Assembly (NCBI RefSeq): GCF_045037415.1
Contig: NZ_CP173438.1
Strand: one strand, 5' to 3'
DNA length: 64,000 nt
DNA from: Escherichia coli
Lineage (GTDB): Bacteria > Pseudomonadota > Gammaproteobacteria > Enterobacterales > Enterobacteriaceae
The position numbers are program-made. Shown here piece after piece: positions 24,001-27,000 of the stretch (its first letter is position 1; the number at the start of each line of letters is the position of its first letter).

Positions 24001-27000
24001 GAGTCCTGTGCAGTGCGTTTCCGTATTATCCACGGATGAGAAAGTTGCGTTATTTCGTCGGTTGTTTCGTGGGCGTAGTGATGTATGGGGCCTTCGATGG
24101 GAAAGTAAAACTAGCGGAAAATAAAAGTACTCGCCTGCCTACGGACCTTTTTACTCAGGGTATTTTTGTTTTCCATAACGTTGCGTATTAACATGAAGGA
24201 GAACGAGGGGGATTAGGTAATCTCTTTCCATGAAAATACGCAAACGTTCATCACCGAAGTGAAAAATCAGTTTTTGATATTTAAATAATTTTTCAAATCA
24301 TATTTCAGCAGGACACTACCAGCACCTAACAGCAGCACATCTTTGATGACAAAACTGTCAACTTTTCCCAGTTGTGGTAACAGACTTAGTGTGACTAAAC
24401 CTGTAACAATAACGATAATATCTCCCAGTATGCCAGCAGCAGGCCTGAAGAAGCCGATACTCAGTGCTAGAAAAGTGATAGTTTCTACTATGCCGAGGAA
24501 ATAGCTCCCCCCATGAACACCAAACATAATGTACAGGATATTCAGCCACGTGGGAGAAATCAGGGGCTTGAGGGCCATCACTTCAAAATCAAACCATTTA
24601 TAGGTCCCGAAGAGCATAAATATTATAATAACAGACAGGCGAAGAATAACTATGTCATAATCTGATTTAATGTAAACATTAATAAATTTTTTCATTTCAT
24701 TCTCCGGGTGGAAAATTATATGCACTAAAAAGGATTAAGTACGGGTATCAAGCATTTTAATTAAAGCGTTAACGGTTCCTGAATAGATATCATGTGGTGG
24801 AAGTCGATTTAACATCAGTGCCCCCTTTAGTGTAGAACAGACTATAACGGCGAGCTCATCCGGAAGAAGAACTGTTTTGAACTCTCCACTATTCTGCCCG
24901 GAGGTGATAATATCTTTAATCATCTGTATCTCCTGATGTGCCAGTTGACTTACAGCCTCCTGTAATTCAGGAGAAAACTGATGGCTGTCGGATAGCATGG
25001 CATAAATACCGCACATTTCCCCTCTTTCAGCACAACCAGCAAATGCATCAAGATATGTCCTGAGACGTTGTACACCTGAAGAAACATTATGGAGAGTTAT
25101 ATTAAGTCTATCAAATACTTCTGTTTTGTATTGGCAGTAGGCTATACCAAGATCAGTTTTCCTCGGGAAATGGTGATGAATACTGGCTTTTCTGATACCA
25201 ATTTCTTTTTCCAGATCTGCGTAACTGAACCCCAAAAATCCGCGTTGCTGGATCAGAGTATCCGTTATGCGAAGTATATTCTCATAAGTAGACACGGCTT
25301 TACCTGTTATGTATTAAAGGGACTATTATACATATTTTAGCGATAGATAATGGCAGTTCCATCAAGTTTATTTTTTCCTCCCAATGAAGTGATTCGGAAA
25401 TGAGAACCTCCTGCCTGCTCCGCTTTGTCTTTAAGCGCAGTTGCCACCTCTTCTGGTGTATATAGATTACCAACAGAAATATAGTCTGACGGCATCAAAC
25501 CAACAACGTCCTGACGATTAATTTCATCTGCAGCAGTTGCGTAGCCTGTCAGAATGAGACCAAGGGCGACAATGGTAGTGCAGATAACATAATTCATGAG
25601 CAATTTCTCTTTATGTTTGCGATACTACACATGCTACCTTCTGATTGGTAGGCTTGCAAGATGGATTTATTTAAAATAAGAGGGATGATTTGTATCAAAT
25701 TGTTTTGTATTTTTGTGTTTTGTATCACTGAGGTGAAGTTGTAAGATCTGGCCCTCTGCGAGGTTGGCTCTGTCGAAAGGAACAGGTGACGAGAGTTAAC
25801 ATCGTTGCCTTGGCTGCATGGGGGATATGTAGCTACCCCCTGATATTTCCGCCACGGAAGCCAATATGAACAACAATAACAATACGCCTCGTTTCCAGTA
25901 TGCTTCATGTCGGATATTTTGTAAGCGCTATGTACTTCCCGGGACGCTTATCTTTTAGCCGTAGCTGGTAGTGCAATAAAAGCCTGGCAGCAATCCAGGC
26001 CTCTACGTTCTAAGAATCAACTGTCAGTGCAGAGGAATGCGCACGACGCTCTCGTTGTTATTGGCTTTTGCCGTCGCACCGTCGTTTTTCACGGTGACAA
26101 ACAGCGCGTGCGCTTTGCTATCCGTCTTATATCACTGGTGCTGACAATGTGGATGAGGTCGCCTTTAAAAAAGGACATCGTTATATAACGGTGATCTCCG
26201 ATCGCGATGGTCGTGCGCTGGCCTTAACGGACGATCGTGGCACAGAGAGCCTCGCCGGCTATCTTCGCACGCTTACTGACGGGCAGTTGCTGGCTATCAA
26301 AACGCTCTCAATGGACATGAATGCAGGCTATATAAGAGCAGCGCGTATCCACTTACCCTGTGCGGTTGAGAAAATCGCCTTCGACCGCTTCCATGTAGCA
26401 AAGCAACTTGGCGAAGTGGTTGATAAAACCCGTCAGAATGAACATCCGCACCTCCCTGTTGAAAGTTGGCGTCAGGCAAAGGGGACCCGCTTCCTGTGGC
26501 AGTACAGCGATAAATGGATGACCAAATCCAGGCAGGAAAAGCTGATATGGCTGCGTGCACAGATGAAGCTGACAAGCCAGTGCTGGGCGCTGAAAGAGCT
26601 GGCAAAGGATATCTGGAACAGGCCATGGAGTGAGGAAAGACGTAATGACTGGGAGAGATGGCTGGCTCTGGCGGCCAACAGTGACGTTCCTATGATGAAA
26701 AACGCCGCGAAAACGATAGGAAAAAGGCTTTACGGGATCCTGAATGCCATGCGACACCGTGTCTCAAACGGAAACGCGGAGGCGCTTAACAGTAAGATCA
26801 GGCTACTGAGGATAAAAGCCAGGGGATACCGAAATCGGGAGCGCTTTAAGCTGGGCGTGATGTTCCACTACGGGAAACTGAATATGGCGTTCTGAGCCTT
26901 CCCACCATGATCAGGGAAAACCCATGTATCATCAGGTTATTATGTGAGCTGGTAAATCAGATTTTGCATGGACTGAAATCATGCTGTTATTTAGGGATAA

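Follow-up and report, generated by a model that had tools for sequence, protein, structure and literature searches.

A three-gene cluster on the pheV island of an Escherichia coli genome is very probably the rcrARB reactive-chlorine defence operon and carries a candidate RcrR operator

Introduction

What might be the role of a cluster of three genes in which a TetR-family regulator lies between a DUF1471 periplasmic protein and a DUF417 membrane protein, all on one strand of an E. coli genomic island? The cluster occupies positions 24267-25603 of a 64,000-nucleotide stretch of contig NZ_CP173438.1 (NCBI RefSeq assembly GCF_045037415.1), the whole of which is referred to here as the window. An earlier sequence-only reading had likened it to the RclB/RclC part of the K-12 reactive-chlorine resistance operon and had suggested a differently wired oxidative-stress module carried on the island. 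With a probability of roughly 0.93, we consider the cluster to be rcrA-rcrR-rcrB (c3599-c3601), the published defence operon against reactive chlorine species (RCS) on the pheV island of extraintestinal E. coli. The system is already known, having been described since 2022, and the sole new element here is a model of its operator and promoter. rcrARB is a published determinant of the survival of uropathogenic E. coli (UPEC) against neutrophil hypochlorous acid (HOCl), and its recognition annotates the island correctly. The three genes are:

25337..25597, minus strand: rcrA (c3599), periplasmic protein of the DUF1471/YdgH-BhsA-McbA family, 86 residues
24735..25295, minus strand: rcrR (c3600), TetR-family repressor, 186 residues
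24267..24725, minus strand: rcrB (c3601), DUF417 inner-membrane protein, 152 residues

Identification of the rcrARB operon

All three open reading frames (ORFs) are intact and follow one another on the minus strand in the transcription order rcrA-rcrR-rcrB. Pfam matches were judged against the curated gathering thresholds. RcrA matches PF07338 (YdgH/BhsA/McbA-like, DUF1471) with 49.2 bits (cut-off 27), RcrR matches TetR_N with 31.7 bits (cut-off 24) and TetR_C_13 with 33.9 bits (cut-off 27), and RcrB matches DUF417 (PF04224) with 74.7 bits (cut-off 27), its residues 17-148 aligning with profile positions 7-175. The ORFs and the above-threshold DUF417 and DUF1471 assignments thus confirm the arrangement first read from the sequence, in which these two genes flank a TetR gene on the same strand. 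The longest rcrA ORF (25603..25337) starts with TTG and encodes 88 residues, whereas the RefSeq start is the ATG at 25597, giving 86; residues 1-23 form a hydrophobic N-terminus, and the signal peptide ends in GYATA, directly before AD. The 152-residue form of RcrB begins at a GTG and is the form numbered in the RcrB papers, while RefSeq places the start at the ATG at 24695 (142 residues), which has a GGAG 7 nt upstream.

The cluster is nearly the same as that of the UPEC strain CFT073, in genes, order and strand. RcrA is identical to the CFT073 protein WP_001110186.1 over all 86 residues, RcrR is identical at 185 of 186 positions (I170 here, T170 in CFT073) and RcrB at 141 of 142 (Y147 here, H147 in CFT073, in the 152-residue numbering used throughout), so that the proteins are 99-100% identical and differ by one substitution each in RcrR and RcrB. 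The 500 bp upstream of rcrA contain a single base difference (499/500). In CFT073 (NC_004431.1) the DUF1471-TetR-DUF417 trio lies at 3442496-3443826, in the same gene order, with papI on one side and iha on the other within the pheV island, which matches the place expected for c3599-c3601; both copies adjoin an ISL3 fragment, an IS3 element and papI on that island. RcrR has cysteines at positions 54, 88, 95 and 153, the same four that were mutated in PMC9600549, and RcrB carries K43, W44, M50, W60, K121 and K128, the same residues that were mutated in 10.64898/2026.03.12.711259; all of the functional cysteine, lysine and tryptophan residues are kept. This agreement in residue numbering with the papers is an independent confirmation of the rcrARB identity, and nothing in the sequence contradicts it.

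Two points weigh against carrying the published account over in full. The published experiments concern the CFT073 alleles, from which the present RcrR (I170) and RcrB (Y147) differ, and the function of the present allele is presumed from its sequence; neither RcrR 170 nor RcrB 147 is among the known functional residues, and homologs of RcrR differ from one another at position 170. Furthermore, the chemistry of RcrB, whether direct quenching or a redox relay linked to glutathione, comes from one 2026 preprint (10.64898/2026.03.12.711259).

Function expected from the CFT073 operon

In UPEC CFT073, the products of rcrARB include RcrR, a TetR repressor that senses HOCl, and RcrB, the DUF417 effector (Sultana et al. 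mBio 2022, PMC9600549). Deletion of rcrR raises expression of rcrA 105-fold and of rcrB 24-fold, and in electrophoretic mobility shift assays (EMSA) purified RcrR binds a 440-bp upstream fragment, binding being lost with N-chlorotaurine and restored by dithiothreitol (PMC9600549). HOCl produces intermolecular disulfides in RcrR, and C54 and C95 are needed for repressor function in vivo (PMC9600549). A CFT073 rcrB deletion mutant is as sensitive to HOCl as K-12 and survives neutrophils less well, while deletion of rcrA, the DUF1471 gene, has no phenotype (PMC9600549). RcrB by itself is sufficient, and the operon is induced by RCS and by hypobromous acid (HOBr), not by hydrogen peroxide (H2O2) or hypothiocyanous acid (HOSCN) (10.1101/2023.06.01.543251). 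The suggested differently wired oxidative-stress module therefore corresponds to a published system, although one that responds to RCS and HOBr and not to H2O2 or HOSCN. RcrB is reported to reside in the inner membrane and to quench HOCl there; extracellular HOCl is depleted, and glutathione synthesis and K43, W44, W60 and K128 are needed (10.64898/2026.03.12.711259).

In the present strain, RcrR would accordingly be expected to bind upstream of rcrA in unstressed cells and to repress rcrA, rcrR and rcrB. Exposure to HOCl, chloramines or HOBr would place RcrR cysteines in reversible intermolecular disulfides, with Cys54 and Cys95 critical, and the oxidised repressor would leave the DNA and derepress the operon. 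RcrB, a four-helix DUF417 protein, would be both necessary and sufficient for high HOCl tolerance and for better neutrophil survival, probably by reducing extracellular HOCl through its periplasm-facing K43, W44, W60 and K128 with a requirement for glutathione synthesis. The periplasmic RcrA would be co-induced and, in the assays used, dispensable.

This logic is reminiscent of NemR (nemRA-gloA) of E. coli, another TetR-family repressor that is inactivated by RCS oxidation of cysteine, with derepression of a protective operon. However, NemR uses another set of cysteines and a thiol-sulfenamide switch, unlike the intermolecular disulfides of RcrR (PMC9600549), and its targets are a reductase and a glyoxalase, whereas that of RcrR is a DUF417 membrane protein. 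RcrA resembles BhsA, YhcN and McbA in its length of about 86 residues, its signal peptide and its single YdgH/BhsA/McbA domain. Its top NCBIfam match is BhsA, with 47.6 bits against a cut-off of 90; it falls under every equivalog cut-off and, unlike those proteins, is encoded in an RCS-inducible operon.

Distribution in E. coli and homologs in other genera

How widespread is the operon? Among 5426 complete E. coli genomes, 757 (~14%) hold at least 80% of it, including ST131-type strains, and 736 E. coli records are at least 99% identical to it; matches of 60-80% are short ones to unrelated plasmid TetR genes. Of 25 records sampled evenly down the ranking, 17 are 100% identical to the present allele, which appears to be the commoner one. 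This distribution fits the published occurrence of the rcr operon in 46% of UPEC and 22% of commensals (PMC9600549), and within E. coli the operon, as judged from these genomes, is a nearly clonal, horizontally spread block. In strain M45 (NZ_CP080119.1 399163-402439) an IS1 element splits the TetR gene, the N- and C-terminal TetR fragments being annotated around the IS1B transposase; in M45, rcrR is probably knocked out naturally and rcrB expressed constitutively.

Outside E. coli, RcrR was sought in one genome per species with a peptide-pattern search that finds close relatives only, and three loci were recovered. A Serratia liquefaciens metagenome-assembled genome has rcrA-rcrR-rcrB in the same order, with RcrR 76% and RcrB 78% identical, followed by genes for a CMD protein (AhpD-like, with a CxxC motif) and a DM13 electron-transfer-domain protein (locus 4056-4930). 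In Providencia alcalifaciens, rcrB is divergent from rcrR (49% identical), rcrA is lacking, and a glutathione S-transferase gene lies near rcrR (locus 3742-4413). Since RcrB requires glutathione for its function, these Serratia and Providencia neighbours are of interest. Pseudocitrobacter vendiensis encodes an RcrR homolog that is 56% identical and keeps C54, C88 and C95, with no DUF417 gene (locus 1334-4938); the regulator gene diverges from a molybdopterin-oxidoreductase/cytochrome b561 pair, and after it come genes for a GAF-domain protein and a short-chain dehydrogenase/reductase. From its gene content, this locus may be a different RCS-responsive regulon.

The TetR-DUF417 pairing thus recurs in Serratia and Providencia. 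In all four genera (E. coli, Serratia, Pseudocitrobacter, Providencia) RcrR keeps C54, C88 and C95, whereas C153 is not invariant, a pattern of conservation that agrees with PMC9600549. The rcr module (24267-25660) has a GC content of 39.8%, lower than the 48% of the island and the 51% of the core genome next to it; that of the closest homologs found (Serratia-type, 76-79% protein identity) is 47%, and that of Providencia 32%.

A candidate operator built into the rcrA promoter

Where does RcrR bind? The sequence-only reading had proposed an operator search for the TetR protein, and this yielded a candidate palindrome at the rcrA promoter, although the E. coli copy is degenerate. The features concerned are:

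25631..25659, minus strand: putative rcrA promoter, TTGCAA (25659-25654), 17-nt spacer, TAGCAT (25636-25631)
25630..25655, minus strand: candidate RcrR operator, a degenerate palindrome overlapping the promoter spacer and the -10 hexamer
25686..25727, minus strand: three direct repeats ATACAAA(A/T)CA (the ATACAAAAC repeats), found by repeat search, upstream of the putative rcrA promoter

The putative promoter aligns position by position with the TTGACT-17-TAGTCT of the Serratia, Providencia and metagenome homolog loci, and it falls in the upstream region bound by RcrR in the published EMSA (440-bp fragment, PMC9600549). It matches the consensus at 8 of 12 positions, under the 9/12 threshold of our promoter scan, and hence was not reported by it. 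The best minus-strand match of that scan lies inside rcrR (25114-25086) and is probably an artefact of AT-richness.

The operator candidate emerged only from a cross-genus comparison of regulatory intergenic regions. In Providencia the palindrome GACTACCTACC-AAAA-GGTAGGTAGTC matches CTACCTACC-N4-GGTAGGTAG at 18 of 18 positions, in Serratia CTACATACC-TTCT-GGTAGGTAG matches at 17 and in Pseudocitrobacter TAACCTACC-ATCT-GGTAGGTAG at 16, where it lies ~60 bp upstream of the divergent cytochrome b561 and molybdopterin-oxidoreductase pair. In each of these 6.5-kb loci the palindrome is the unique top site, the next independent site scoring no more than 12/18. The perfect-palindrome form of the candidate is GACTACCTACCTTCTGGTAGGTAGTC. 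Serratia, Providencia and two rcr-like metagenome loci have palindrome and promoter fused as TTGACT-ACCTACC-N4-GGTAGG-TAGTCT, with 17-nt spacing. The E. coli site can be written as an exact CCTACC-N8-GGTAG, which occurs once in the window against 0.00 expected, or as a 13/18 match to CTACCTACC-N4-GGTAGGTAG in two registers.

A scan of metagenome contigs for the exact palindrome, with loci chosen by the DNA motif alone, served as an independent test. The exact CTACCTACC-N4-GGTAGGTAG was found at 90 loci in 79 distinct sequence contexts. Thirty-five RcrR-family TetR ORFs start within 350 bp of the palindrome and read away from it, compared with ~2.8 for an even spread of the 44 such ORFs, and seven of the remaining nine lie 0.5-1.1 kb from it, likewise reading away. 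In about half of the 90 loci no TetR was detected with a small hidden Markov model. DUF417 is present in just 2 of the 90, both of them rcr-like. These associations suggest that a broad TetR subfamily has the palindrome as its operator type; the pairing with DUF417 looks narrower, seen mainly in Enterobacterales.

Several observations count against assigning this operator to E. coli. The E. coli site scores 13/18, and since chance would give ~2.1 sites at that level or better in every 64 kb, the score alone is not significant; a search of the window for the consensus palindrome with up to three mismatches finds nothing, the E. coli site having five. An operator sequence is not described in PMC9600549, 10.1101/2023.06.01.543251 or 10.64898/2026.03.12.711259: the text of the 2022 paper contains neither 'palindrom' nor 'inverted repeat', that of the 2023 paper neither 'operator' nor 'palindrom', and that of the 2026 paper no 'operator'. 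A literature string search for the palindrome returned unrelated primer sequences only. Comparison of divergent alleles within the species, as a form of promoter footprinting, is impossible, since the 736 E. coli records are at least 99% identical and include no intermediate alleles. Support for the E. coli site comes instead from its homologous promoter position and from the DNA-binding region of RcrR, whose helix-turn-helix is almost identical in E. coli and Serratia.

Could RcrR bind another DNA site? A generic inverted-repeat search upstream of rcrA returned just an 18-nt imperfect inverted repeat (72% complementary), whose arms (25628-25611 / 25592-25575) enclose the ribosome-binding site and start codon of rcrA, and short direct repeats. 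It is conceivable that either this inverted repeat or the ATACAAA(A/T)CA repeats (25727-25686) are what RcrR recognises: they lie across or upstream of the rcrA start and so are probably inside the EMSA-bound region, and the competing palindrome scores at a level expected about twice per 64 kb by chance. However, neither the repeats nor the inverted repeat is visible upstream of the Serratia homolog, whereas the palindrome stands at 16-18/18 beside every RcrR homolog examined, is unique in each locus and has the same place within the promoter in E. coli as in its relatives. The near identity of the E. coli and Serratia helix-turn-helix regions and the excess of metagenome TetR ORFs close to the palindrome also argue against another site, which we regard as unlikely, if still a serious contender, and which in any case concerns the operator only.

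On balance we lean slightly towards CTACCTACC-N4-GGTAGGTAG as the RcrR operator, built into the promoter and shared by a broad subfamily of RcrR-like regulators found in environmental bacteria, some members of which would control other redox genes, with the E. coli copy decayed to 13/18. RcrR bound to a palindrome overlapping the -35/-10 promoter would occlude RNA polymerase; in E. coli the palindrome is degenerate. If the model holds, the decayed E. coli operator could account for the basal RcrB level that has been reported for UPEC, and the system might be leakier than those of its relatives. It would also allow RcrR regulons to be predicted in other species, including those in which RcrR homologs lie beside other redox genes.

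Within the 41-nt spacer between rcrA and rcrR there is a perfect TATAAT hexamer (25325-25330), without a convincing -35 element. An internal promoter here might supply basal rcrR-rcrB expression, an idea that fits the weaker derepression of rcrB than of rcrA in the rcrR deletion strain. The consensus promoter/terminator scan found no terminator downstream of rcrB.

Relation to RclB and RclC of K-12

Is the cluster then a rewired form of the K-12 Rcl system? The resemblance to RclB and RclC that had been noticed from the sequence holds at the level of Pfam families and fails at that of orthology. With the real K-12 rcl locus as control, RclC matches DUF417 with 269.9 bits and RclB the YdgH/BhsA-like family with 43.4 bits, so the family assignment of the two K-12 proteins holds. 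RcrB and RclC share 25% identity (BLASTP), and RcrA and RclB 27% over 49 residues. RcrB scores 23.6 bits against the RclC model NCBIfam NF040476 (cut-off 275; K-12 RclC 340.4), and RcrA has no match at E<=0.01 to the RclB model NF040474 (cut-off 100; K-12 RclB 152.7), and orthology was rejected for both. On these comparisons RcrB and RcrA are distant paralogs, not orthologs, of RclC and RclB.

The two systems (rclABC-rclR being the RclR regulon) have in common their Pfam families, the order of periplasmic then membrane protein, induction by HOCl and two DUF417 lysines: RclC retains the equivalents of RcrB K43 and K128, while W44 and W60 belong to the RcrB type alone. RcrB is ~45-55 residues shorter than RclC and has no counterpart of two loop insertions, which would face the periplasm if RclC shares the topology proposed for RcrB. 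The rcl genes are regulated by a divergently encoded AraC-type activator, while rcr has its TetR repressor gene between the two other genes. The Rcl system also includes the RclA flavoprotein; at the rcr cluster, as the sequence-only reading had observed, neither an RclA-like reductase nor an AraC-type regulator such as RclR is found among the flanking ORFs or in the annotation of a strain that is 100% identical over 14600-28375.

It might nevertheless be argued that the pair acts as RclB and RclC do, lowering envelope permeability to hypohalous acids or aiding defence against copper or HOSCN, with the regulator alone swapped. The shared families and the two lysines kept in RclC would favour this, as would the proposal, in PMC12096828 and its preprint, that RclB and RclC lower cell-envelope permeability. 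We think it very improbable, since identity is so low, the K-12 models are failed by RcrB and RcrA and passed by the K-12 proteins, the two predicted periplasmic loops are missing, and no RclA or RclR partner is present. The published experiments point the same way: RclC and RcrB do not cross-complement, RclC failing to rescue an rcrB deletion and RcrB giving no protection from HOSCN (10.1101/2023.06.01.543251), and it is extracellular HOCl that RcrB-expressing cells deplete (10.64898/2026.03.12.711259).

Island context

The pheV island takes up ~1-39.4 kb of the window, and core genome, from yqgA to metK, comes after it. The order along the window is IS (insertion sequence) remnants, sat, iutA-iucDCBA, a shiF-like major facilitator superfamily (MFS) gene, a TOTE-primase fragment, rcrB-rcrR-rcrA, an ISL3 fragment, IS3, papI-papB-papA', IS1, papX, IS1, an integrase and tRNA-Phe. 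The operon is therefore flanked on one side by the MFS transporter gene and the TOTE-primase pseudogene fragment and on the other by ISL3 and IS3 remnants. The CFT073 island is arranged differently, as papI-IS3-ISL3'-rcrARB-...-iha-...-sat-iutA-iucDCBA-shiF. There, ~12 kb (hypothetical genes, ISEc10, iha and IS elements) together with sat and iutA separate rcr from the aerobactin block, whereas here rcr directly adjoins the shiF-like MFS gene. In relation to the aerobactin block, rcr lies on the opposite side from that in CFT073 and is inverted, with no iha between.

That the cluster might be decaying island cargo without current function in this strain, as its setting amid IS remnants, pseudogene fragments and a group II intron and the damage to nearby virulence genes (iucD shortened, papA frameshifted, the pap operon cut by IS1) could suggest, has next to no plausibility given three intact ORFs with every known functional residue, a promoter region 499/500 identical to that of CFT073, conservation of the same sequence at >=99% identity in 736 records, and the resistance to HOCl of clinical UPEC isolates that carry rcrB (10.1101/2023.06.01.543251).

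Some features of the neighbourhood deserve mention in their own right. Between the MFS gene and rcrB lies a frameshifted fragment (~23911-24121) of a TOTE conflict-system archaeo-eukaryotic primase gene. A shorter TOTE-primase fragment also flanks rcrB in CFT073, and the fragment seems to travel with the rcr block. The iucD ORF (16532-17809) encodes 425 residues, compared with 445 in CFT073, and RefSeq calls iucD frameshifted in strain 4/1-1, which is 100% identical at iucD; the shortening may impair aerobactin synthesis or alter the C-terminus of the protein. On the other side of the operon, Rfam matches to STnc490, an Hfq-binding small RNA (65.5 bits), and to the ALIL frameshifting pseudoknot (116.3 bits) occur at 27296-27418 and 27916-28032, the first just upstream of the IS3 copy and the second inside it. 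The orfB gene of this IS3 copy is interrupted by a group II intron of ~2.26 kb (28376-30637), whose reverse transcriptase/maturase ORF spans 29032-30156 and continues in another frame at 30005-30556, with an Rfam Intron_gpII match at 30560-30646 (64.9 bits). Strain 4/1-1, otherwise 99.96-100% identical across the flanks, lacks the intron.

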